From positions 3,100,318 through 3,164,317 of the forward strand of contig OY730441.1 of assembly GCA_963422665.1 (NCBI GenBank): a stretch of DNA of 64,000 bases. Reading direction: 5' to 3'. Below, in pieces: positions 8,269 through 56,077 of this stretch; within the stretch, counting starts at the first letter, position 1; each line of letters starts with the position of its first letter. Below the pieces are notes generated by a model. The model made no database searches. It was not told the DNA's origin and saw nothing but the letters and a program-made list of their open reading frames with translations. The translations under genes and the position numbers were made by a program. The DNA comes from Alphaproteobacteria bacterium (GTDB lineage Bacteria; Pseudomonadota; Alphaproteobacteria; Bin95).

Positions 8269-8403
8269 TCAGGCCGAAAGGACCTTGCGCCCCTTGGCGC
8301 GCCGCCGTTGCAGCACACGGCGGCCGCCAACGGTCGCCTTGCGGGCGCGGAAACCGTGGCGCCGTTTGCGCACGAGGCGGCTCGGCTGGAAAGTGCGTTT
8401 CAC
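8269..8403 (-). CDS. rpmH: 50S ribosomal protein L34
   Basis: 44 codons: [44 protein letters not shown], with a GTG start at 8401-8403. Hidden at the end of a spurious 300-aa track ORF. Confidence 0.9.
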
Positions 8404-8454
8404 GGAATATGAGCTCCATCGCGGACGAGATGAACGGCCACCGGCCGCATCCGG

Positions 8455-9264
8455 ATGACCCGAATAATGGTGATACCGGCGCCCGCTGTCAACGCTATGA
8501 TGGCGGCAGCGGACGATGCGGAGGTGCGGGCGATGGCCGCAACCGGGCGGCGCTCCTGGAGCGCCGCGGCGAAACGCCTCTCGATCCTGGCGGTGCTGGC
8601 GGCAGGCCTTGCCGTGTTTTTCGCCGCCGGGCTCCAGGAGCATTTGAGTTTCGAGGCGCTGCGGGACAACCGGGAAATGCTGGCAAGCTGGGTCGAGGAG
8701 AACCGGTTCGCGGCGCTGCTCGCCTACGCCGCCGCTTATGTCGTCGTCATCGCCTTCTCGCTGCCGGTGGGCGCGGTGGCGACCATTTCCGGCGGATTCT
8801 TCTTCGGGCTCTGGTTCGGGACCGCGGCAACGGTCGTCGGCGCCACGCTCGGCGCGACGGCGCTGTTCATCGCGGCCCGGACCGTGCTCGGCGGCCGGCT
8901 GCGCGCCAGGGTCGGCGCCGCGCTCGAACGCATGGACAGCGGCTTTCGGCAGAATGCCTTCAACTACCTGCTCGTGCTGAGACTGGTGCCCCTGTTCCCC
9001 TTCTTCCTCGTCAATATCGCGCCGGCCTTCGCGAATGTCCGGCTCGCGACCTATGTCTTGGCCACCTTTCTCGGCATCATCCCCGGCACTTTCGTCTATA
9101 CGAGCGTCGGCAACGGGCTGGGAGCGGTGTTCGACAGCGGCGGCGAGCCCGATCTCGGGCTCATCCTGCAACCGGAAATCCTGCTGCCGATTCTCGGGCT
9201 TTCGGCGCTGGCCCTGGTCCCGGCGATCTACAGGCGCTTCCGGCGCAGCCCGCCGCCGGCATGA
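8455..9264 (+). CDS. TVP38/TMEM64 (SNARE-associated, DedA-related) membrane protein
   Basis: 269 aa, multi-TM, with the family core [23 protein letters not shown]...[12 protein letters not shown]. The exact start is uncertain. Confidence 0.75.
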
Positions 9265-9329: not shown

Positions 9330-10706
9330 ATGCGGCTGCCGCGCTCGTTTCGTTCGCTTTCGGCGCGCCTGCTCGTGCTGACCGTATTCTTCGTCATGCT
9401 GGCGGAGCTGCTGATCTATGCGCCGTCCATCGCGCGCTTTCGCATCGCCTATCTGGCGGACCGGCTGGCGGACGCGCATATCGCCGCGCTTGCGTTGGAG
9501 GCGGCGCCGACGCGGGCGGTGGACGAGGCGCTGGAGATGCGCCTGTTGCGCCATGTGTCGGCCTACAGCGTCGAGCTGCGGGTGGGCGAGCACACGACCT
9601 ACGTGCTTGGCGACGGCATGCCGCCGGAAGCGGATGCCGCCTTCGAGCTCGACGAGGCCATGGCGGTCTCCTCGGTCTGGGAAGCCGCCTCCGCCCTGGC
9701 CCGGCGGCGAAACCGGGTCTTGCGGGTTAGCGGCAGTTCCTCCCACGAGCCGGGCGCGCGGGTCGAGATCACGATGGACGAATGGCCGATGCGCCGCGCG
9801 ATGATCGCCTATTCCGAGCGTACCCTGCTGCTCTCGCTGGTCATCTCGGCGCTGACGGCCGCGGCCGTCTTCCTGACGCTGCACTGGCTGATGGTCCGCC
9901 CGATGGGCCGGTTGACCGAGGCGATGGTGCGGTTCGGCACCGATCCCGAAGACCAGAGCCGCATCCACGCGCCGTCGGAGCGCAGCGACGAGATCGGCGC
10001 CGCCGAGCACCAGCTTGCCGGAATGCAGCGCCGCCTCCACGCCGCGCTCAGCCACCGGGCGCATCTGGCGGCGGTCGGGGAGGGCGTGGCGAAGATCAAT
10101 CACGATCTGCGCAACATGCTGGCCTCCGCCCAGCTCGTCTCCGACAGCCTGGGAGAGAGTCGCGACCCTCGCGTGCGCAAGGCCGTCCCGACCCTGGTCG
10201 GAGCGCTCGACCGGGCGGTCGGCCTCTGCACGCGGGTGGTGGATTTCGCACGCGCAGGCGGCCCCCGGCTTACCCTGGAGGCGGTGCTGCTGGCGGAGGT
10301 GATCGACGATGCGGCGGGCGTCGCCGGCAAGGGCGCGGCATGGGCCAACGGCGTCCAGCCCGGCATCGCGGTGGAAGGCGACCGTGAGCAATTGTTCCGC
10401 GTCTTCGCCAATCTCGCCCGCAATGCGGCGGAGGCGGGCGCCAGGGCCGTTTCGGCGACCGCCAGAGTGCGCGAAGGGCGCGTGCATGTGACGATCGCGG
10501 ATGACGGTCCCGGCCTGCCGGAGCGGGCGCGCGCGAATCTGTTCCGGCCCTTCCAGGGCTCGACGCGGCCCGACGGCTCCGGGCTCGGCTTGGCGATCGC
10601 GCGCGAGATCGTGCGCGCCCATGGCGGCTCGATCCGGTTGATTTCTTCCGACGGCGAGGGGACGGTGTTCCGGCTGGATTTCGCGATGCACAGGGAACGG
10701 CGATGA
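9330..10706 (+). CDS. sensor histidine kinase (no adjacent response regulator)
   Basis: N-terminal TM segments, H-box ([16 protein letters not shown]) and ATPase N/G boxes ([31 protein letters not shown]). Confidence 0.8.
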
Positions 10707-21341: not shown

Positions 21342-21494
21342 CTACCGCCCTTCGAGGAAGCGAAGGAAGGCATGATCTGGACCTGACGATCCGGCGGACC
21401 GCTGCGGCGCGCACAAGGCCCCGCACCGGTCATGCCGCAGCGAACGCGGGCCGGCTGTTCACCGGGCAGCAGACGGGAGAAGTGCGCGCGCGCG

Positions 21495-21750
21495 GCGCGT
21501 GGCGGCGTTCGGTTCGCCGGCGGAAGGGCGGCCCGGCGGTGGCGGGCAGGGCGGAATGCTGCATTCGGGTTTGGCGTTGCGAAGGACGGCCGGATCGACC
21601 CGGCAGCGCGGCGGCGGGGCGGAATGTTGCGTTCGGATTCGACGTTGCGGCGGCCGCGCCGGCGCGGCCGGAGGACGGCCGGATCGACCCGGCGGCGCGG
21701 CGGCGGGCGGGGATGTTGCGTTCGGATTCGGCGTTGCGGCGGCGGCGACT
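21495..21750 (+). repeat. tandem direct repeats, about 3.5 copies of a 68-88 bp unit
   Basis: Full copies start at 21550 (68 bp) and 21618 (88 bp). A partial copy starts at 21706 and a degenerate one at about 21495. Shared blocks are GGCGGAATGYTGC-TTCGG-TT-G-CGTTGCG and GGACGGCCGGATCGACCCGGCRGCGCGGCGGCGG. Copy 2 carries an extra perfect 18-nt palindrome GGCCGCGCCGGCGCGGCC (21652-21669). Confidence 0.7.
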
Positions 21751-21767
21751 CAATCGGAGGAGGAACG

Positions 21768-22235
21768 ATGGCGAAGGAATCGGCAGGCGGAACGAAGGGC
21801 GGCCCGGCGGGCGGGCTGCCGGCGTTGCGGCGGGGCCGCCCGGTCGGCGTGGACCTGCGGGCCGCGGCGGTGGCGGCGGTGGTGGAGCGGGGCATGAGCG
21901 CCGCCGCCGCGGCCCGGCATTTCGGGCTGGAGGCGTCCAGCGTCGGCCTCTGGGTGCGGCGCTTTCGCGAGCGCGGCCATGTGCGGCCCGACCCGATGGG
22001 CGGCAGCGCCTCGCGGATCGAGCCGGAGCGGGAGCGCATTTTCCGCATTCTGGAGGCGCAGCCGGCGATTTCGGCCCGGAAGCTGCGCGATGCGCTGGCC
22101 GCCCAGGGACTGGCGTTCGACGCGACCACGGTGCAGCGTTTCCTGAAGCGCCACGGCCTGGACCGCGCCCGGCGCCTCGCCCGCCTCCGCCGCAAGCGCA
22201 AATCCGGGCCCCGCAACCCGCCCCGCCCCGTCTGA
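21768..22235 (+). CDS. stand-alone IS630-family transposase N-terminal HTH domain protein (no DDE domain)
   Basis: 155 aa behind GGAGGAGG. The pattern DLRAAAVAAVVERGMSAAAAARHFGLEASSVGLWVRRFRERGHV...MGG...IEPERERIFRIL...TVQRFLKRHGL resembles the first ~130 aa of IS630-type transposases. The ORF stops, and only 189 bp follow before phoX. Confidence 0.6.
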   Translation: MAKESAGGTKGGPAGGLPALRRGRPVGVDLRAAAVAAVVERGMSAAAAARHFGLEASSVGLWVRRFRERGHVRPDPMGGSASRIEPERERIFRILEAQPAISARKLRDALAAQGLAFDATTVQRFLKRHGLDRARRLARLRRKRKSGPRNPPRPV

Positions 22236-22291: not shown

Positions 22292-22424
22292 CTCCCGATC
22301 CGGGGAAGAGCCGGGGCGGGGCGGCGGACCGTCCGCGAAACGCATCTGTCATCGAAGCGATAATGGAGTATCATCCAGGTTCGGCATCTGCCGCTGCACA
22401 TGGTGACGGAACCGGAGGAGCTTC

Positions 22425-24308
22425 ATGCCCGATCACGCCAGCGAACTTTCGTTCGATGAATTCGACGAGCTGAACGACCCGCGCGACGAGCCGACCGCCT
22501 TCGAGCGCATCGTCTCCCGCCGCCGCTTTCTGGGCGGCGCGGCCGCCCTCGGCGCCGCCGGCGCGTTCTTCGGCCTGGGCGCGTTCCGCCCGGCGCATGC
22601 GGCCGGCATGGGGGGCCTCGACTTCGAGCCCGTCGCCGCCAACAGCCTGGACACGGTGACCGTGCCGCCGGGCTTCTCCTGGCATAATGTCATCGCCTGG
22701 GGCGACCCGCTCTGGTCCGACGGCAAGCCGTTCGACCACGAGACGCGCGGCACCGGCGCCAGCCAGGAGCGCGCCTTCGGCGACAACAATGACGGCATGG
22801 CCGCCTTCTTCGTTGACGGCAGGACCGTCCTCGCCGTCAACAACGAATATGTGAACCTGTCGATCATCTACGGCAACCGCGCCTCCGGCCTGCCCGAGAA
22901 CGCCGACGATGTGCGCAAGGGCAAGGCCGGCCACGGCGTCAGCGTCTTCGAGGTCGAGATGAAGGACGGCGCGTGGCGGGCGGTCGTCGACTCCCCCTTC
23001 AACAGGCGCATCACCGCGGACACGCCGATGGAGATCACCGGGCCGGCGCGCGGCCACGACATGCTGAAGACCGCGGCGGACCCGACCGGCGCGGCGGCGC
23101 TCGGCACCTGGAACAATTGCGGCAACGGCGAGACGCCCTGGGGCACCTATCTCGCCTGCGAAGAGAATTTCCACGGCTATTTTTCGTCCTCGGACCCGGA
23201 CCATGCCGTGTCGGACGCGATGAAGCGCTACGGCGTCGGGCCGAAGGACCGGGGCTACGCCTGGGCGACGGCGGACGAACGCTTCGACATCTCGAAGCAC
23301 CCGAACGAGCCGAACCGGGCGGGCTATGTCGTCGAGATCGACCCGCTCGACCCGGGTTCGACGCCGAAGAAGCGCACCGCGCTCGGCCGCTTCAAGCATG
23401 AGAACGCCGAAGTCGTGGTCGCCGCCAACGGGCATGTCGTGGTCTATATGGGCGACGACGAGCGCGGCGAGTTCCTCTACCGCTTCGTCTCCGAAGGCCG
23501 CCATGTCGAGGGCGGCGACAATTCCGGTCTTCTGGAATCGGGCTCGCTCTCCGTCGCGCGGTTCGCCGAGGACGGCAGCGGCGAGTGGCTGGCGCTGACG
23601 CCGGAGACGACCGGCATGACGTCCCCGGCCGAGATCGCGGTGCTCACCCGCATGGCCGGCTCGGCCGTGGGCGCGACCACCATGGACCGCCCGGAATGGG
23701 TCGCCGCGCATCCGCAGCGGGCCGAGGTCTATTGCTGCCTCACCAACAACAAGAACCGGGGCAGGAAGCCGAACAAGGGCGGCGACCCGACCCCGGTGGG
23801 CGGCCCCAATCCGCGAGAGGGCAACAAATACGGCCAGATCGTGCGCTGGCGGCCCGCGGGCGGCGACCACTCGGCCGCGGGCTTCGCGTGGGACCTGTTC
23901 GTGGTGGCCGGCAATCCGGCGGTGCACAGCGACGCCAATGCCGGCTCCGCCAATGTTAACCCGGACAACATGTTCAACTCGCCGGACGGGCTGGCGTTCG
24001 ACAGCAAGGGCGGCCTCTGGATCCAGACCGACGGCAAATACACCAACGAGGGCGACTTCGCCGGCCAGGGCAACAACCAGATGCTCTACGCCGACCCCGA
24101 CACGGGCGGGATCGCCCGCTTCCTCACCGGCCCGAAGGAGTGCGAAGTGACCGGGCTCTGCTGGTCGATGGACCGCAGGACCATGTTCGTCGGTCTCCAG
24201 CATCCGGGCGAGAAGGGCGGCAGCAGCCATTTCCCCGGCGGCGGCGGCACCGCGCCGCGCTCGACCGTGATCGCCGTCACCCGCGACGGCGGCGGCGAGA
24301 TCGGCTGA
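22425..24308 (+). CDS. phoX: PhoX-family alkaline phosphatase (DUF839)
   Basis: Twin-arginine signal (SRRRFLGGAAALGAAGAF) and a PhoX-like body (NNCGNGETPWGTYLACEEN, RFKHENAEVV). GGAGGAG lies before the ATG. Confidence 0.88.
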   Translation: MPDHASELSFDEFDELNDPRDEPTAFERIVSRRRFLGGAAALGAAGAFFGLGAFRPAHAAGMGGLDFEPVAANSLDTVTVPPGFSWHNVIAWGDPLWSDGKPFDHETRGTGASQERAFGDNNDGMAAFFVDGRTVLAVNNEYVNLSIIYGNRASGLPENADDVRKGKAGHGVSVFEVEMKDGAWRAVVDSPFNRRITADTPMEITGPARGHDMLKTAADPTGAAALGTWNNCGNGETPWGTYLACEENFHGYFSSSDPDHAVSDAMKRYGVGPKDRGYAWATADERFDISKHPNEPNRAGYVVEIDPLDPGSTPKKRTALGRFKHENAEVVVAANGHVVVYMGDDERGEFLYRFVSEGRHVEGGDNSGLLESGSLSVARFAEDGSGEWLALTPETTGMTSPAEIAVLTRMAGSAVGATTMDRPEWVAAHPQRAEVYCCLTNNKNRGRKPNKGGDPTPVGGPNPREGNKYGQIVRWRPAGGDHSAAGFAWDLFVVAGNPAVHSDANAGSANVNPDNMFNSPDGLAFDSKGGLWIQTDGKYTNEGDFAGQGNNQMLYADPDTGGIARFLTGPKECEVTGLCWSMDRRTMFVGLQHPGEKGGSSHFPGGGGTAPRSTVIAVTRDGGGEIG

Positions 24309-34446: not shown

Positions 34447-34527
34447 GGAAAGGAATCCCCGATTTGCGTTGCCGGCATTATGCACGAATTGGCGAGCGCG
34501 GCCGGCATGGCGGGCGTCTCCGGATCG

Positions 34528-35400
34528 CTACGGATGGCGCGCGGCGCGCCGATGCTCCCGCCAGATCGCGAAGATCCCGCTCGCGACAACGACGGACGCC
34601 CCGACGATCGTCCACCTGTCCGGGAAGGCGCCGAAACCGACCCAGCCCCAGACCGTCGCCCAGACCAGCAGGGTGTAGCTGAACGGCTGCAGGACGGCTG
34701 CCGGGGCCTCCCGTGCGGCGAGAATGAGCAAGCCGTGTGTGACAACTCCCAGTATCCCGATCGCACCCAGGAGCGCCCATCCATGGGTGTCCGGCGGGAC
34801 CCATGCGAAGGGCGCGGTCGTACTCCACACGACAAGACCGACAATCGCCGTGTAGAGCAGGGTCGTCTCGGGCGGGTCGTCGCGCAAACGGCGCAGCAGC
34901 AACTGGTAATAGGCCCAGGCGAACGCGGCCACGAGCGGCAGAATGGTCAACGGATCGAACACGCCGATACCGGGGCGAATCACGATCAGCGTGCCCGCAA
35001 AGCCCAGCGCCACGGCCGCCCACCGCCAGGGACCCACACGTTCGCCCAGCAGGGGAACGGCAAGCGCTGTCGCGATCAGCGGCGAGACGGCGGCAACGGC
35101 ATGAACATCTGCAAGCGGCAACTTCGAGATCGCATAGACGAACAGCCACATCTCGAGCGCCAGCAGGAAGGAGCGAAACAACTGGAGGCGCCAGTTTCGC
35201 GTCCGCAGCATCGGGCGGACGCCGCCCCGCCGGGCCGCGAGCGCCAGTGCGAAGGCGAGGAAAACGGCGAAGCGCAGGAAGAGCACCTGCGAGACGGGAT
35301 AAGTCTGGGTCGCGAGCTTTCCGACGGCATCGAGGCTCGCCAGCATTGCCATGCCCGCGATCATGAGGGCGATGCCGCGTCCGGGTCGATCCGGCCTCAT
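34528..35400 (-). CDS. DMT-superfamily (EamA-like) transporter
   Basis: Track ORF trimmed to the ATG at 35398-35400 (MRPDRPGRGIALMIAGMAMLASLDAV...). About 10 hydrophobic spans in two EamA-like halves. Confidence 0.8.
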   Translation of the reverse strand: MRPDRPGRGIALMIAGMAMLASLDAVGKLATQTYPVSQVLFLRFAVFLAFALALAARRGGVRPMLRTRNWRLQLFRSFLLALEMWLFVYAISKLPLADVHAVAAVSPLIATALAVPLLGERVGPWRWAAVALGFAGTLIVIRPGIGVFDPLTILPLVAAFAWAYYQLLLRRLRDDPPETTLLYTAIVGLVVWSTTAPFAWVPPDTHGWALLGAIGILGVVTHGLLILAAREAPAAVLQPFSYTLLVWATVWGWVGFGAFPDRWTIVGASVVVASGIFAIWREHRRAARHP

Positions 35401-35525
35401 GGAAAAGGATGCAATGCGAAGCGGGAATACGCGCGGGTCATGCGGCGGTTTCACACGACCCGGATCGGTTGTATCGACCGGAAGCAGCGGGCAATATCCA
35501 CCGCTCTCTCTTCCCCGGACAAGGT

Positions 35526-36482
35526 ATGACCCCCGAACAATTGGAAAAGCTGGAGTCCATTGAGCGTGTCCGCGAAGGCTATGCGGAACTCGGCTATATC
35601 TGTTCGCGCCAGATTGCAACGGCGATCTATGTTGCAGGCCATCTCGGCAAGCCGGTTCTGGTCGAGGGGCCTGCGGGCGTCGGCAAGACCGAACTGGCGA
35701 ACACGACGGCTGCCTATCTCGACCTGCCGCTCATCCGGCTGCAATGCTACGAAGGTCTCGACGAGGCCAAGGCGCTCTACGAATGGCGCTACGCCAAGCA
35801 GCTTCTCTACACGCAGATTCTACGGGACAAGCTCGGCGAAGTTCTGGGCGAGGCCCAGGGGCTCAAGGAGTCCATGGACCGGCTGCACGCGCATGCGGAC
35901 GTCTTCTTTTCCGAGCGTTTCCTCGCGCCGCGGCCTTTGCTGAAAGCGCTGCGCGAACCCGGCGGCGCGGTGCTGCTGATCGACGAAGTGGACAAGTCGG
36001 ACCACGAGTTCGAGGCCTTCCTTCTGGAAATCCTGTCCGAATTCCAGGTCTCCATTCCCGAACTCGGGACGATCAAGGCCGGGCGCCGCCCCGTCGTGTT
36101 CCTGACCTCCAACAACACCCGGGAGATGAGCGACGCGCTCAAGCGGCGTTGCCTGCATCTCTATGTGCCGTTTCCCGATGCGCCGCTCGAACGGGAGATC
36201 ATCCAGGCCCGTATCCCGGAGATTCCGCGCAACCTGAAATACCAGCTCGTGTCCTTCGTGCAGCAGGTGCGCGGACTGGACCTGAAAAAGCAGCCCTCCG
36301 TAAGCGAATCCATCGACTGGGCGCGCGTGCTGCTGCTGCTGCATGCCGACGAACTCGAAGCGGACATGGTTCGGGAAACGCTCAATGTCTTCCTCAAATT
36401 CGAGGAGGACATCCAGTCGGTCGATGCGGAACTCTACGGGCTCACCCGCCAGGCGAAGAAGGCCGACGGCGCGCGCGCCTGA
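35526..36482 (+). CDS. MoxR/CoxD-like AAA+ ATPase
   Basis: Walker A GPAGVGKT and Walker B LLIDEVDK, with a MoxR-like C-terminal region. ATG at 35526. Confidence 0.85.
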   Translation: MTPEQLEKLESIERVREGYAELGYICSRQIATAIYVAGHLGKPVLVEGPAGVGKTELANTTAAYLDLPLIRLQCYEGLDEAKALYEWRYAKQLLYTQILRDKLGEVLGEAQGLKESMDRLHAHADVFFSERFLAPRPLLKALREPGGAVLLIDEVDKSDHEFEAFLLEILSEFQVSIPELGTIKAGRRPVVFLTSNNTREMSDALKRRCLHLYVPFPDAPLEREIIQARIPEIPRNLKYQLVSFVQQVRGLDLKKQPSVSESIDWARVLLLLHADELEADMVRETLNVFLKFEEDIQSVDAELYGLTRQAKKADGARA

Positions 36483-37813
36483 TGGAGCGCATCTTCACCA
36501 ACTTCCTGTCGGCGCTGCGCGGGGCCGATATCCGGGTCTCGGTCGCCGAGACGCTCGATGCCATGGAAACGGCGCGGCTGATGGGCTGGTCGGACCGGCA
36601 AAGCCTGCACGACGCTCTTGCCATGGCGCTCGCCAAGACGCCTGAGGAAAAGACCGGATTCACCCGTATCTTCGACGAATTCTTCGCCTTCGAAAGCTTT
36701 CACGAGCGCCGGGACGGGGAGGAAACAGAGGAGAGCGGGCAGGCGGACGGCGGAGACCTGCTGACCATGCTGGAAGCCGGCGACCGCGCCGCGCTGGCGC
36801 TCGCCATGCAGAAGGCGGCGGCGGAGGTCGGCGTGGAGAACATCCGCTTCTTCACGCAGCGCGGCCTTTATACCCAGCGTGTGCTCCAGCAAATGGGCGT
36901 CGAAGGCGTGGATGCGCAGATCCAGGCGATGGGCAGGCAGGGCGGCGGCGGCAGCGCCGGGCAGGCCTTGCAGGAAAGCCGAGCCTGGCTGTTCGAGCAA
37001 GTGCGCAACCATGTCGAGCAACAGCTTTCGCTGCAAGGCGCGGCAACGTCGCAGGAATTGAGGGAAGACCGGCTGCGCCGCTCCCGGCTCGGGAATCTCG
37101 ACCGCCGCGACCGGGAGCAAATGCGCCGCATCGTGGAAAAGATCTGCCGCCGGCTGGTGGCGCTCCATTCCCGGCGGCGCAAGATGAAGAATCGCGGCCA
37201 GCTCGATATCCGCCGCACCATGCGCCGCAATTACGGCAATGACGGCGTGCTGTTCGAGCTGGAGTGGAAGAAGCGCAAGCTCGACCGGCCCCGCGTCATG
37301 GCGATCTGCGATGTCAGCGGCTCCGTTGCCAGCGTCGCGCGGTTCCTGTTGCAGTTCCTCTATGAGCTGCACGAACTCCTGCACGATATTCGGAGCTTTG
37401 CCTTTTCCGGCTACCTCATCGAGGTCTCGGAGCACTTCAAGGACAATATCGCCGACGAGGCCGCCGACAAGGTAATGCAGAAGGTCGGCTACATGCCGAC
37501 GGACTACGGCGAATCGCTCACCAATTTCCGGGAGAGTTTCCTCGCCGATGTGGACCGGAACACAACGATCGTCTTCCTCGGCGACGCCCGGTCGAACAAC
37601 ACCGATCCCAGGGCCGAATACCTGAAGGAGATGCACAAGCGCTGCAAGCGGCTCATCTGGCTCAATCCGGAACCGCCGCCGCTCTGGGGCACGGGAGACA
37701 GCGAGATGCGCCGCTACCGGCCCTATTGCGATCTCTTGCGCGAATGCAACACGCTCAACCACCTGGAGCGCGTCGTCAACGATCTGCTCGAAACCGCCCG
37801 AAGGGCCGCCTGA
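36482..37813 (+). CDS. CoxE-like VWA domain protein
   Basis: C-terminal VWA with a MIDAS-like motif (AICDVSGSV) and a CoxE-like tail (IWLNPEPPPLWGTGDSEM). ATG overlaps the ATPase stop (TGATG). Confidence 0.85.
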   Translation: MERIFTNFLSALRGADIRVSVAETLDAMETARLMGWSDRQSLHDALAMALAKTPEEKTGFTRIFDEFFAFESFHERRDGEETEESGQADGGDLLTMLEAGDRAALALAMQKAAAEVGVENIRFFTQRGLYTQRVLQQMGVEGVDAQIQAMGRQGGGGSAGQALQESRAWLFEQVRNHVEQQLSLQGAATSQELREDRLRRSRLGNLDRRDREQMRRIVEKICRRLVALHSRRRKMKNRGQLDIRRTMRRNYGNDGVLFELEWKKRKLDRPRVMAICDVSGSVASVARFLLQFLYELHELLHDIRSFAFSGYLIEVSEHFKDNIADEAADKVMQKVGYMPTDYGESLTNFRESFLADVDRNTTIVFLGDARSNNTDPRAEYLKEMHKRCKRLIWLNPEPPPLWGTGDSEMRRYRPYCDLLRECNTLNHLERVVNDLLETARRAA

Positions 37814-37825
37814 GGCCGGGCAGGA

Positions 37826-38398
37826 TTATCCGCTCTCAGCGGCTTCCTCGACCCAGTGGCGGCGGAACACCGGTATCTGCGCCAGCGAGAAGGCGAATGT
37901 GAAGCCGATGGTGCCGAACAACTTGTAATTGACCCAGAAGTCCGTGGACTGTGTGCGCCAGACGATCTCGTTCAGCACCGCCATCGCGATGAAGAACAGC
38001 CCGAAGCGTAGCGTCAGCTTGCGCCATCCGTCGTCGTCCACCTTCCAGACCCCTCCGAACAGCGGTTTCAGCAGGGGCTTGCCGAAGGCAAGGCCGCCGA
38101 GCAGCACGGCCGCGATGAACGTTTTCACGATGGTCGGCTTCATCTTGATGAAGGTTTCGTCCGCGAGCAGCAGGGTCAACCCGCCGAACACGGCGACCAG
38201 GCCTGCGGTAACGAGCGGCAACGGCGCCAGGCGTCGCTCGAAATACCAGGAGACACCGAGCATGACGGCGGTGGCCGCCATGATCGCAGCCGTCGCCCAC
38301 ATGATGCCGGCGGCGTAGTAAGCGAAGAAGAAGACCAGCAGCGGGCCGTAATCGACCGCGAAACGGAGGCCCTTCGGCGGCGCGCCCGGTTCAGACAT
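37826..38398 (-). CDS. yciB: intracellular septation protein A (YciB/IspZ)
   Basis: 190 aa with 5 hydrophobic spans and family-like sequence (DETFIKMKPTIV...WRKLTLRFGLFF). The ATG is embedded in the last codons of the upstream dioxygenase beta gene. Confidence 0.82.
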   Translation of the reverse strand: MSEPGAPPKGLRFAVDYGPLLVFFFAYYAAGIMWATAAIMAATAVMLGVSWYFERRLAPLPLVTAGLVAVFGGLTLLLADETFIKMKPTIVKTFIAAVLLGGLAFGKPLLKPLFGGVWKVDDDGWRKLTLRFGLFFIAMAVLNEIVWRTQSTDFWVNYKLFGTIGFTFAFSLAQIPVFRRHWVEEAAESG

Positions 38399-47002: not shown

Positions 47003-47130
47003 GATCGACAGCACGATTCCACATGGCTGAAGCGACTGCCGGTCGACAGCCCGTCTGCGGTTCGGCATCCGGGGCCGGCCGCCGCCCTCCGGGCCGGGCA
47101 AAGCCGCACCGAGGAACACCCCGCGCGAAG

Positions 47131-47157
47131 TGTCATGAAATGTCATGTTCTGTCATG
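47131..47157 (+). repeat. three TGTCATG direct repeats at exact 10-bp phasing (iteron-like)
   Basis: TGTCATGaaaTGTCATGttcTGTCATG at 47131, 47141 and 47151. They overlap the last codons and the stop (47143-47145) of the minus-strand HTH gene. The 20-mer TGTCATGAAATGTCATGTTC recurs exactly at 55717. Confidence 0.75.
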
Positions 47158-47457
47158 GTCCGGGGTGAATTCCTCATCCTCCGGCCCGTCCGTGTCGTCC
47201 GGTTCGTCGGGGTCGAATTCCTTCTCGCCGGGCCAGCGGGCCTCATCCCGTTCGGTGCGTTCCCACGACAGGCGGATGCGGCGCAGGCGTTCGACGATCC
47301 GGGGCCGCTCCAGCAGGGCGCAGCCGGTCTGGCGGGCGAAGCGCTCGGCATTGCCGGCGCGCCTTGCGGCGTCTGCAGCATTGCCGGAGACGGTGAAATG
47401 GCGGCGGAAGGCTTCCTGCCTTGTGGACAGGGCGACAGTCGGGTCGAGAAAGGACAT
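47143..47457 (-). CDS. small HTH protein resembling phage terminase small subunit (Terminase_2-like), acidic C-terminal tail
   Basis: 104 aa. STRQEAFRRHFTVSGNAADAARRAGNAERFARQTGCALLERPRIVERL follows the k-q-e-F...gNa..AA..AGys...A..q...LL..p.v pattern of small terminase HTH domains. High third-position GC. ATG behind GAAGGAA. Confidence 0.6.
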   Translation of the reverse strand: MSFLDPTVALSTRQEAFRRHFTVSGNAADAARRAGNAERFARQTGCALLERPRIVERLRRIRLSWERTERDEARWPGEKEFDPDEPDDTDGPEDEEFTPDHDRT

Positions 47458-47683
47458 GGGGCGGCGGTTCCTTCGTTTCGTTGTCGCCCGGTTTCGGAGC
47501 GAGCCTGTTTCGCGCGTGTCGCGGGCGCGGGCGTGTGGGGGCGTGCGCGCCGTCCGCGCCAGTGCTCGTGTTGCGCGCGGGCTGAACGCAGGGCGCACTT
47601 CACCTGTTGGCTGAATCGCGGGCGTTCCGGCGCCGGGCCGGGGCGAAGGACGACGGTCCGCGGACGCCGCTTGCCTCCAGCCC

Positions 47684-47692
47684 ATTCTAGCA
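47684..47692 (-). promoter_or_regulatory. extended -10 element TGcTAGAAT
   Basis: The same 11-mer (gtgcTAGAATg) is conserved at the paralogous locus (55908-55916). It lies about 225 nt upstream of the HTH gene ATG. The -35 is weak. Confidence 0.35.
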
Positions 47693-47896
47693 CGGATATT
47701 CTGTAGCCAGGCCCCAATCGGGAATTATTTCCAAAATTCCGCGAATCCGTGCCGGGTGCCGCTGAATCGGACCTGTGCTGGTTGCCGCCGGCGTCCGGGG
47801 CGACGGAAGAGGACGGAGACCGGTCTGGCCGGGCCAGCGGGCCGCGTCCGTTGAGCCGGGGCGCCACGACTGCGGGACTCGCCGGACAGGCGCTCC

Positions 47897-52735: not shown

Positions 52736-52810
52736 GCCGCCGTAGCTCAGGGGTAGAGCACACCCTTGGTAAGGGTGGGGTCGAGTGTTCAATTCACTCC
52801 GGCGGCACCA
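52736..52810 (+). tRNA. tRNA-Thr (anticodon GGT)
   Basis: Hand-folded cloverleaf. Acceptor GCCGCCG/CGGCGGC, D stem GCTC/GAGC, anticodon stem CACCC/GGGTG with loop TTGGTAA, T stem GAGTG/CACTC with loop TTCAATT, discriminator A, encoded CCA. Confidence 0.93.
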
Positions 52811-54228: not shown

Positions 54229-54374
54229 AGCGGGGCCTCCCCGTCGCCGTTCGGGGCTGCCGGCTCCAGTTCCTTCAACTGTTTGGCGGCCTGGACCCGC
54301 CGGTAGACCAGCCAGATCTTGAGGCCGGCGACCAGCGCGAGCGCGCCGAAAACGACCAGCGCCTCGACGATCAT
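54216..54374 (-). CDS. small single-TM protein translationally coupled to ccr
   Basis: 52 codons ([52 protein letters not shown]). ATG overlaps the ccr TGA (ATGA at 54371-54374). 46 of 52 codons end in G/C by hand count. Confidence 0.45.
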
Positions 54375-55606
54375 GAAGCGCCTTGGCCGCGTTCGGTGGC
54401 GTTGACCAGCACGGCCATCTGTCCGGCCGGATGGCGGTTCTCGTGCATCAGTTGGTGGGCGTGGCCGAGCTCGTCGAAGTCGAACACCTCCGACAGGCAG
54501 GGGTCGATCTTGCCGTCGATGACCATCCGGTTCACCGCCGCCGCCTGTTCGTCGTTCGACAGGTGGCTGCCCTGGAAACGCTTCTGCCGCATCCAGTGGT
54601 AGCGGAGGTCCAGCGTCACATTGTAGCCGGTGGTGCCGGCGCAGATGACGATCATGCCGCCGGTGTCGCAGACGAACTCCGAAGTCGGCAGGGTCGCTTC
54701 GCCCGGATGCTCGAAGACGATCTTCGGGCTCGCGCGCTCGCCGAGCGCCTCCCAGATCGCCGCACCGAAGGCGCGGGCTCCCTTCGCCCATGCGCCGTAG
54801 GCTGCGCTGTCGTTCGTGTCCGGCATCGGCCCCCAATGGTCGAAGGCCTTGCGGTTGATGACGCCGACCGCGCCCATTTTCATGCACCAGTCGCGCTTGG
54901 CGTCGTCCGAAATGACGCCGACCGGCCGGCCGCCGAGCGCGGCCGTGATCTGCAGCGCCATGGCGCCGAGTCCGCCCGACGCGCCCCATACCAGCACCGG
55001 ATCGCCCGGCTCGACCGTATGCGGCGGCCAGCCCATCAGCATCCGGTAGGCCGTCGAGGCGCAGAGCAGGTAGCAACCGGACTGCTCCCAGGTGAGGTGT
55101 TTCGGGCGCGGCTGGCACTGGTGCGCCTGCGCCTTCGCAAACTGGCAATAGGAGCCGTAATTGGTCTGGTAGCCCCAGATCCGGGTGGAGGAAGCCAGCA
55201 TCGGGTCCTTGCCCGCCAGGACCCACGGGTCGTCCGGCTCCCACCAGCCGGAGTGGATCACGACCTCGTCGCCGACCTGCACGTTCGTGACGTCCGACCC
55301 GACGGCCTGGACGATGCCGGAGCAGTCGCTGCCGCCGGCATGGAAGTCCTCCGGCTCGCCCTTGCGCATCCGCTCCTGGATCACGTCCAGCGGATAGCCG
55401 AGCGCCGCCCAGACATTGTTGTAGTTGATCCCTGTCGCCATGACATAGACGAGCACCTCGTCCGGCTTCAGCGCCGGAACCGGAATGACCTCCCGCTGCC
55501 AGGCGTCCTTCGGTTCCCCGAAACGGTCCTGGCGCACCATGAAGGCGTGCATCTTCTCGGGCGCTTCGCCGAGCGGCGGCTGTTCGCCCAAAGCGCAGAG
55601 TTCCAT
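54371..55606 (-). CDS. ccr: crotonyl-CoA carboxylase/reductase
   Basis: MDR-fold Ccr-like sequence ([53 protein letters not shown]). ATG at 55604-55606 behind GGAGGAG is preferred, and TTG at 55639 is possible. Confidence 0.9.
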
Positions 55607-55716
55607 CGGGCCGGCTCCTCCATCGTTTCGCGTCAGCAACGATACGCTCTAGGCGGTTGCCGTCCGGAATTCAATTCCCGGTCCGCTCCGGCGCCGCCGG
55701 AAGGATACTCGGGAAA

Positions 55717-55736
55717 TGTCATGAAATGTCATGTTC
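55717..55736 (+). repeat. iteron copy TGTCATGAAATGTCATGTTC (two TGTCATG units)
   Basis: Exact 20-mer match to 47131-47150. Lies at the end of a leader paralogous to the one at 47458-47690, about 110 nt upstream of ccr. Confidence 0.7.
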
Positions 55737-55907
55737 CGGCGTCTCCCTGGTTTCGTTGCCGCCCGGCTCGGGGGCGACCCCGTTTCGCCCGTATCGCGGG
55801 CGTGTGCGGGCTTGCGCGCGGGGCGGCGGACGCAGCTCTCCCGCGAGTTTCGGACGGAGTGCTCGGAAGCGAGAGACGCGGCCCAGGAGGCCGCTGCTCC
55901 CAGGATC

Positions 55908-55935
55908 ATTCTAGCACACTTTCTCCCCGGTCAAG
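55908..55935 (-). promoter_or_regulatory. candidate promoter CTTGAC-16-TAGAAT with extended -10 (TGc)
   Basis: Minus strand reads gcTTGACCggggagaaagtgTGcTAGAATg. It points toward ccr, about 300 nt upstream of the ccr ATG. Confidence 0.4.
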
Positions 55936-56054
55936 CCCCAAACGAAACAAAAAGTGAATATTCCGGCTCCCCGTTTCGTCGGATGAGGGTGCGCAAGGCG
56001 GAGCGGCCGGATACGGATATGTGAATCCGATGGGCGCCGCGGGAGGGACATTCG

Positions 56055-56077
56055 TGTCATGTCATGAAATGTCCATG
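56055..56077 (+). repeat. third, degenerate iteron copy (TGTCATGTCATGAAATGTCcATG)
   Basis: Same orientation as the other two copies. Lies about 160 nt upstream of the prpE ATG. Confidence 0.55.

Follow-up and report, generated by a model that had tools for sequence, protein, structure and literature searches.

The 64,000-nucleotide stretch analysed here (positions 3,100,318 to 3,164,317 of contig OY730441.1, Alphaproteobacteria bacterium assembly GCA_963422665.1; hereafter, the window) carries on its minus strand a 104-codon open reading frame (ORF) at 47143..47457, whose product resembles the helix-turn-helix (HTH) part of phage small terminases (TerS), and whose last codons run into three copies of the heptamer CATGACA. 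The question raised by this locus is what such a gene does among bacterial housekeeping genes, and what its terminal repeats are. An earlier note on this DNA treated it as an orphan single gene; this is contradicted by a scan of GTDB (one genome per species), which yields 115 loci belonging to a family of one-gene elements present in many copies. The locus in the window is an internally deleted copy, decayed and non-autonomous, of this element, which is 1.25–1.4 kb long when intact, and the heptamer array is the predicted binding site for the HTH ring of intact copies.

The translation of the window ORF matches the protein quoted earlier. Its residues 1–74 comprise the HTH and the start of a long helix, and residues 75–104 are a remnant of the acidic tail. 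The Pfam profile PF03592 (Terminase_2) scores 31.2 bits, above the gathering cut-off of 26.1, with the match limited to profile positions 2–55 of 141, that is, to the HTH; TerS families of PHROG match at 9e-9 and 2e-5. The small-terminase HTH and the acidic tail, both proposed in the earlier note, thus stand. The array at 47131..47157 (minus strand), with A/T-rich spacers and a 10-bp period, contributes the stop codon: the coding strand ends with ...CCG GAC CAT GAC AGA ACA TGA, within CATGACAgaaCATGACAtttCATGACA (47157–47131), and the stop TGA (47143–47145) is that of the middle heptamer. On the plus strand, TGTCATG begins at 47131, 47141, and 47151. This arrangement, which the note had also pointed out, is non-random: the heptamer occurs 12 times in the window (4.15 expected), and the 10-bp pair TGTCATGN3TGTCATG three times (0.02 expected), a count reached by none of 100 shuffles. 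The third such pair, at 55717–55733, is absent from the earlier note. No terminase, portal, capsid, or integrase is seen for the 44 further window ORFs among the 25 families listed per search (Pfam, PHROG), in agreement with the note's remark on the lack of a large terminase and structural genes.

A first protein search returned 35 relatives, all from uncultured Alphaproteobacteria, including a 97-residue paralogue in the window genome; their N-terminus and last residues (..PDHDxx) are conserved, and the middle is variable or missing. The search with the intact protein returned 340 proteins, mostly of 305–345 amino acids, with PF03592 as the sole domain. The family is narrow, since an exhaustive profile search of 1.84 billion representatives gave only 49 clusters at E<=1e-30. 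All 115 GTDB loci come from metagenome-assembled genomes (MAGs) named "Alphaproteobacteria bacterium" or "Rhodospirillaceae bacterium", with sponges as the source of several; the element is confined to a clade of uncultured, animal-associated Alphaproteobacteria labelled Rhodospirillaceae-like. The best-covered MAGs have 5–10 loci per genome, and copies within one genome are 82–97% identical over 1.2–1.4 kb, with unrelated flanks. In nearly all loci the intact ORF has 300–345 codons, and it is intact in 48 of the 55 assessable ones. The window's own 4.59-Mb contig carries such an intact paralogue, P0155 (314 amino acids).

On the examined contigs, each family locus consists of the gene alone, with unrelated housekeeping genes on either side. 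Within ±10 kb of five loci, the element has no phage, integrase, or transposase gene next to it, the sole exception being an unrelated fragment of an insertion sequence (IS), IS1595, about 6 kb away in L001. The view of the window gene as a lone orphan remnant of a prophage, satellite, or gene transfer agent (GTA) packaging module is hardly credible: the TerS homology is real, but the 115 loci, the hundreds of family proteins, and the several copies per genome, each solo, speak against it, as does the absence of family members from 2.9 million viral contigs, where the only hits are HTH-level matches of 32–34%. Moreover, the protein has the HTH, whereas GTA-type small terminases are defined by having no DNA-binding domain at the N-terminus (PMC6854486). 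The viral contigs were also scanned for triple heptamers; the ten matches are all unrelated simple repeats, most of them in contigs of lower GC content.

Compared with the intact element, the window copy retains positions about 1–622 and about 1289–1408; approximately 670 bp of the full-length gene (amino acids ~75–285) are deleted in frame. Lost with them are the central oligomerisation domain, for which intact copies have predicted long helices at residues 52–106, and the entire C-terminal extension. The acidic tail of the window protein is the residue of a hypervariable tail present in all family members. The invariant Cys18 is replaced by Arg, and four nearly invariant residues are substituted as well (P2S, Y21F, Y36N, S40F). 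The ratio of non-synonymous to synonymous substitution rates (dN/dS) between the window copy and the other short copy is 0.43, versus 0.21 for intact copies at the same codons, a comparison based on 36 substitutions only. Without the oligomerisation region, and with changed invariant residues, the window copy most likely forms no functional ring, and persists as a cis-only relic with recognisable ends. The deletion junction (RDEARWP..EFDPDEPDDTDGP) recurs in P0002, from another locus, and in P0006, from a different MAG, and the short form with the identical junction occurs at two loci of the window genome; hence, the short form itself has been copied. Other short forms are orthologous to intact copies (L015 with L047, L013 with L057), which argues for decay in place. 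Deletion derivatives keep both ends in every case.

The intact element is one transcription unit, consisting of an extended −10 promoter, a conserved leader of 230–300 nt, a single gene encoding 305–345 amino acids, and a 3′ array of two to four CATGACA units. The conservation profile over 41 copies rises from flank level (0.2–0.45) to 0.62–0.67 in the promoter block, which starts from T(T/C)GTTC, the usual left boundary; it reaches 0.56–0.95 in the leader and 0.76–0.97 in the ORF, falls to 0.41–0.68 in the hypervariable tail, and rises again to 0.85 in the heptamers, so that the array forms a conservation island after the tail. Beyond the family consensus cTTCGCAGGGG, conservation is again at flank level. 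In the window, the corresponding end motif is cTTCGCgcGGGG (47119..47130, minus strand), and the fall just past it marks the approximate right boundary of the element. On the other side, the promoter and left end occupy 47684..47740 (minus strand), with an extended −10 TGcTAGAAT (47692–47684), a degenerate −35, and an A/T-rich GGAAATAATTCC block; homology to other copies begins at about 47732–47739. The family promoter consensus is TTGCAT or TTGACC, 15 nt, and TGnTA(t/g)(a/g)AT, with an A/T-rich block upstream. The leader, or 5′ untranslated region, at 47458..47683 (minus strand) contains family-conserved blocks, including GGAACGcCCgCGATTCAGC and GAAACAGGcTCGCTCC, and a ribosome-binding site (AAGGAA). 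The leader of about 220 nt between the −10 element and the ATG, and the extended −10 itself, had been described in the earlier note; both are present and conserved family-wide, although a scan with the sigma-70 consensus called no full promoter in the window copy.

The Rfam search of the element and its leader gave no match at the gathering score, nor at E<=10. The 5′ hairpin of the leader is 89% paired, versus 55–60% with the pairing slid, with covariation no better than in shuffles and an RNAalifold covariation term of about 0. Among the leader blocks, GGAACGACCCCGATTCAGC (e.g., 47610–47628 in the window; present in all copies, A4/A5) is the most invariant. It contains a GANTC (CcrM-type) site, and 9 bp of pairing would be possible between it and the next most invariant block, GGGTCGCTCC; as both are invariant, no covariation signal arises.

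Judged by sequence and by a predicted structure, the protein is a true homologue of the SPP1/SF6-type small terminases. PF03592 scores 45.6 and 50.6 bits (45–51) in intact copies, and a 149-residue relative, P0008, is 30% identical to a Bacillus phage TerS over 85% of its length. An AlphaFold2 (AF2) model computed for P0155 with 38 homologues as input is all-helical: the HTH has a predicted local distance difference test (pLDDT) score >90 and is followed by the long helices 52–106 and by two more helical segments with pLDDT ~70–77, the linkers and the tail being disordered. The model matches the DNA-binding domain of SF6 G1P (4zc3/2cmp) with a template modelling (TM) score of 0.85, a root-mean-square deviation of 1.5 Å, and 39% identity; the other structural matches are full-length SF6, PaP3, and NV1 TerS. 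Only small terminases are matched, and no likeness to a transposase, recombinase, or nuclease is seen in the model. PADLOC and NCBIfam give no match for the intact protein. Intact proteins are under purifying selection (dN/dS 0.03–0.4): within and between genomes, dN/dS is 0.03–0.22 in the TerS core and 0.21–0.41 in the conserved C-terminal extension, a helical, acidic region of ~190 amino acids, while it is about 0.6–1.6 in the poorly aligned tail. The low values within and between genomes indicate that the protein is functional.

The array is a DNA-level site, conserved independently of the reading frame. Over 63 arrays or loci, the number of units is two in 18, three in 42, and four in three; the period is 10 bp in all 111 cases measured, 158 of the 174 units are exactly CATGACA, and the spacers are 78% A/T in a 68% G+C genome. 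Nearly all intact ORFs run into the 3′ array (45 of 48), and all but one of these (44 of 45) stop at the TGA of an array unit. They enter it in all three frames (37, 6, and 2 ORFs), taking the stop from unit 2, 3, or 1 accordingly; three units at a 10-bp period necessarily place TGA, and ATG, in every frame. Arrays are retained in lineages whose proteins are only 50–59% identical, and are also present without an ORF. Entry in three frames and occurrence without an ORF mean that the array is constrained as DNA and not as peptide, and conservation of a C-terminal peptide is rejected as its cause on the same grounds. The earlier note had asked whether the array is common genome-wide in random contexts; it is common in the lineage, but always as the 3′ end of the same element or of a remnant of it.

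The heptamers could also be host response-regulator sites unrelated to the TerS-like protein, since TGTCAT is the core of the Pho box and CTGTCAT direct repeats are bound by PhoB. The window indeed has a CTGTCAT half Pho box (22335–22360) about 80 nt upstream of the phoX alkaline phosphatase gene (22425–24308). However, the period of Pho boxes is 11 bp and not the uniform 10 bp of the array, the 11-bp pattern is not enriched in the window, and, across deeply diverged lineages, the array goes with a single element and a single gene family. The Pho box is rejected on period, and we regard a PhoB-like role of the heptamers as very improbable.

Copies of the element evolve in concert within a genome, by frequent ectopic conversion or by turnover at the same sites. 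At the orthologous site L019/L065, both flanks are 93% identical and the elements only 78.6%, while each element is 96–99% identical to paralogues of its own genome. Three more orthologous pairs behave similarly, the overall values being 93–95% for flanks, 79–86% for elements, and 92–99% for own-genome paralogues. Synteny often breaks exactly at a copy, and assembly contigs break at the element. In DNA reads of host-associated metagenomes, the summed word depth relative to the unique flank is 61–71x for the heptamer bin, 19–21x for the promoter bin, and 2–7x for the HTH part (X1, X6). These values show that element ends are far more abundant than ORFs, and suggest roughly 20–70 copies of the ends, although the ratios mix copy number with mappability. 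Hence, a genome has at least 5–10 copies, and probably tens. Runs that are possibly RNA have the same 3:1 end ratio as the DNA runs and are uninformative.

Dispersed copies with unrelated flanks, and deletion derivatives keeping both ends, are also what is expected of a non-autonomous element of the kind of miniature inverted-repeat transposable elements (MITEs), moved by an unlinked transposase (e.g., of the HUH/rolling-circle or IS110-like type). The terS-like gene would then be a passenger or an accessory DNA-binding factor, and the heptamers would be the end-recognition site of the transposase. The lack of inverted repeats and target duplications is shared with IS91, IS200/605, and IS110; IS91 inserts beside GTTC/CTTG, and the left boundary of the element is usually T(T/C)GTTC; the short form with one junction at two loci fits as well. 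Nevertheless, no transposase adjoins the element at about 90 inspected loci, and no partner gene is identified; strong purifying selection on the ORF is expected of an element's own propagation protein and not of a passenger; and copies are kept at orthologous sites across species. We therefore rate movement by an unlinked transposase as unlikely.

Some copies are themselves interrupted. In L014, a copy is broken by a 260-bp MITE (10160–10425, inverted ends GGCTTTCTCCCCAATGTCA..), which sits in the HTH-coding part, and by a frameshift; read-through gives a much longer protein. The leader of the same copy has a further insertion of ~190 nt with GC-rich hairpins, also seen in L068/L069. In L101 (4095–5520; a 94%-related strain, at the orthologous site after TusA), an IS4-family element (DDE_Tnp_1, 393 amino acids) lies inside the heptamer array.

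A second copy in the window, at 55717..55985 on the minus strand, has no ORF: its promoter and leader are joined directly to two heptamers (55717–55733), and the sequence beside this pair aligns with the promoter and leader of the 47-kb locus. Its promoter comprises TTGACC (55934–55929), a good −35, and TGcTAGAAT (55916–55908). The copy reads towards ccr (54371–55639, minus strand), identified as crotonyl-CoA carboxylase/reductase (TIGR01751, 549 bits), and its promoter may drive this gene. A degenerate heptamer array, TGTCATGTCATGaaaTGTCcATG, is found at 56055..56077 (minus strand); it lies outside the ORF-less copy, ~70 nt past its left end and ~95 nt upstream of its promoter region. In L001, from the same or a sister genome, an ORF-less relative at 8398–8800 (minus strand) has the promoter type of the 55.7-kb copy and three heptamers, and is aimed at sdhC; it stands head-to-head with the 97-residue copy, with a glutathione S-transferase (GST) gene between them.

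Since both ORF-less copies examined aim at the gene just downstream (ccr in the window, sdhC in L001), the family might be a domesticated multicopy regulator, or mobile-promoter cassette. Its protein would be a transcription factor or a nucleoid protein, the heptamers an operator together with a three-frame stop or insulator, and the ORF-less copies portable strong promoters. The conserved extended −10 with its A/T-rich upstream block, the stops and starts that three phased units supply in all frames, the retention at orthologous sites, and the purifying selection on the ORF agree with this. On the other hand, only one of six ORF-bearing copies examined has a co-oriented downstream gene, and at least ten near-identical regulator genes per genome, evolving in concert, would be unusual for a host regulator; we consider a regulatory cassette quite improbable.

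The explanation that we prefer, with somewhat better than even confidence, is that the window locus is a decayed copy of a multicopy TerS element whose array is bound by rings made by the intact copies, and whose catalytic partner acts in trans; the doubt mostly concerns the binding and the partner, not the identity of the locus. By analogy with phage small terminases, intact proteins would assemble into rings like those of TerS, with the HTH domains facing outwards and spaced by about 10 bp of wrapped DNA. These domains would bind the phased heptamers and build a nucleoprotein site at the 3′ end of the element similar to a packaging initiation (pac) site, the phased heptamers and A/T-rich spacers presenting to each HTH in turn one and the same side of a segment that is probably bent. 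The array site and the promoter/leader end would be needed in cis for copying or conversion of the element: both ends survive in every derivative, and the element's one ORF is under selection, hence the complex is probably required in cis. The element itself does not encode the enzyme that would cut or copy the DNA; this activity would have to come in trans, from a resident GTA or phage with a terminase-type nuclease, from a recombination function of the host, or from an unlinked transposase. Of the packaging scheme in the earlier note, pac-like binding survives as the most natural reading of the TerS homology and the constrained array, while the assignment to a prophage relic or a GTA-type factor does not.

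Several observations weigh against this explanation. Pfam, NCBIfam, PADLOC, and the PDB yield no known family or fold for the C-terminal extension. A search of the surroundings of the copies found no large terminase, GTA cluster, or nuclease near any of them. End alignments of more than 40 copies reveal no terminal inverted repeats and no target duplications, although the exact ends are placed to within a few bases, and very short duplications could escape. Flank cross-matching and orthologues of the neighbouring metallo-beta-lactamase fold (MBL) gene gave no clean empty/filled site pair; in L101, a solo array stands at a place that lacks one in the window, but an extra gene is present there as well, the four-unit array lying between an additional enoyl-CoA hydratase gene and the gene for an RraA-like protein. 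Hence, transposition as such is not demonstrated, and the many copies at orthologous sites across species fit long residence with gene conversion as well as mobility. Finally, the DNA-binding domain of SF6 is a weak, non-specific binder (PMC4737164), so that sequence-specific recognition of the heptamers would set the element protein apart from its closest relative of solved structure.

As a tentative possibility, well short of an even chance, the family may represent a new class of selfish elements, with a small-terminase homologue as the sole gene, whose ring binds its own array and recruits a GTA or phage nuclease, or packaging motor, in trans. If so, breakage at the arrays would drive conversion among copies and, from time to time, insertion at new sites, and tens of packaging-initiation sites across the chromosome would amount to a built-in system of host-DNA mobilisation or of diversion of phage terminases. 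Small terminases are known as parts of the packaging machines of phages, satellites, or GTAs; to our knowledge, none has been reported as the sole gene of a repeat element. A full-text literature search found no published description of such an element, and the type does not seem to have been described. If the protein binds the phased array, the family would lend itself naturally to studies of how a ring of HTHs recognises a site phased at 10 bp, and it could reveal a new route of DNA spread or packaging in animal-associated symbionts. In practical terms, the family genes are publicly annotated as "terminase small subunit", a label that can cause prophages to be overcalled in these MAGs, and element copies are places where short-read assemblies break.

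In the window, the 47-kb copy is flanked by genes for Vut_1, the RraA-like protein, enoyl-CoA hydratase (ECH), MBL hydrolase, and TusA on one side, and for low-molecular-weight protein tyrosine phosphatase (LMW-PTP), UPF0262, HisD, and HisG on the other. Short GC-rich hairpin repeats, GTCGCCCCGGAC...GTCCGGGGCGAC, occur at 47770–47830 and in several loci, both intergenically and beside element copies, and look like a separate family, similar to repetitive extragenic palindromes (REPs) or MITEs. The segment 32277–32335 resembles the GC-rich portion of the element leader (~80% over about 55 nt); this short match may be due to chance or be a small fragment. One of the 44 called window ORFs matches HNH-endonuclease families of PHROG (best 1.4e-32); the ORF at 21432–22235 has weak, sub-threshold matches to HTH domains of Tc1/IS630-type transposases and is possibly an IS remnant. 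The region 34500–37830, with a G+C content of 64% versus 68%, has genes for an EamA transporter, for an AAA_5 ATPase of the MoxR/CoxD-like kind, and for a VWA CoxE-like protein. At 52736–52807 lies a tRNA gene, the sole match to Rfam across the window.

The closest known system is G1P of SPP1/SF6, which has the same N-terminal HTH fold (TM score 0.85, 39% identity) followed by long helices, as in the oligomerisation core. The SPP1 pac site contains direct repeats around terS, and here, too, such repeats are found within the gene or next to it; the ring, as studied in SF6, selects bent DNA (PMC4737164). The TerS ring wraps about 100 bp over 8–11 subunits, and the 10-bp period of the array fits this geometry (PMC6854486). 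Unlike SPP1/SF6, the element has no large terminase, portal, or other phage gene, exists in tens of copies with none in viral contigs, encodes an extra conserved C-terminal extension of ~190 amino acids, and places its repeats so that they span the stop codon at the 3′ end, and not the promoter and start. Its heptamers are conserved in sequence, whereas the SF6 domain has little sequence specificity. With RcGTA gp1, the small terminase of the Rhodobacter capsulatus GTA, the element shares an alphaproteobacterial host and the small-terminase relationship; however, gp1 has no DNA-binding domain at its N-terminus and is found at the head of the GTA structural cluster (PMC6854486), whereas the element protein has an HTH and never stands in such a cluster. 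The Pho box also consists of direct repeats with a TGTCAT core, but has an 11-bp period and is not part of a repeated element.

Insertion sequences and MITEs are similar in that the element is ~1.3 kb long with one ORF filling most of it, has dispersed copies and internally deleted derivatives with both ends, shows synteny breaks at its copies, and keeps its single ORF under purifying selection. It differs from an IS in that the ORF has no transposase or recombinase fold or family (PF03592 only), the left end is a promoter, inverted repeats and visible target duplications are lacking, and many copies occupy orthologous sites and evolve in concert. Phage-inducible chromosomal islands (PICIs), their capsid-forming relatives (cf-PICIs), and phage-inducible chromosomal minimalist islands (PICMIs), satellites whose small terminases redirect helper packaging, likewise have a chromosomal terS with its own recognition site, apart from the large terminase that it would need; but these satellites are single-copy islands of several kilobases, with integrase, regulation, and replication genes (at an attachment (att) site in PICIs and PICMIs), whereas the element described here is one gene in many copies of 1.25–1.4 kb.

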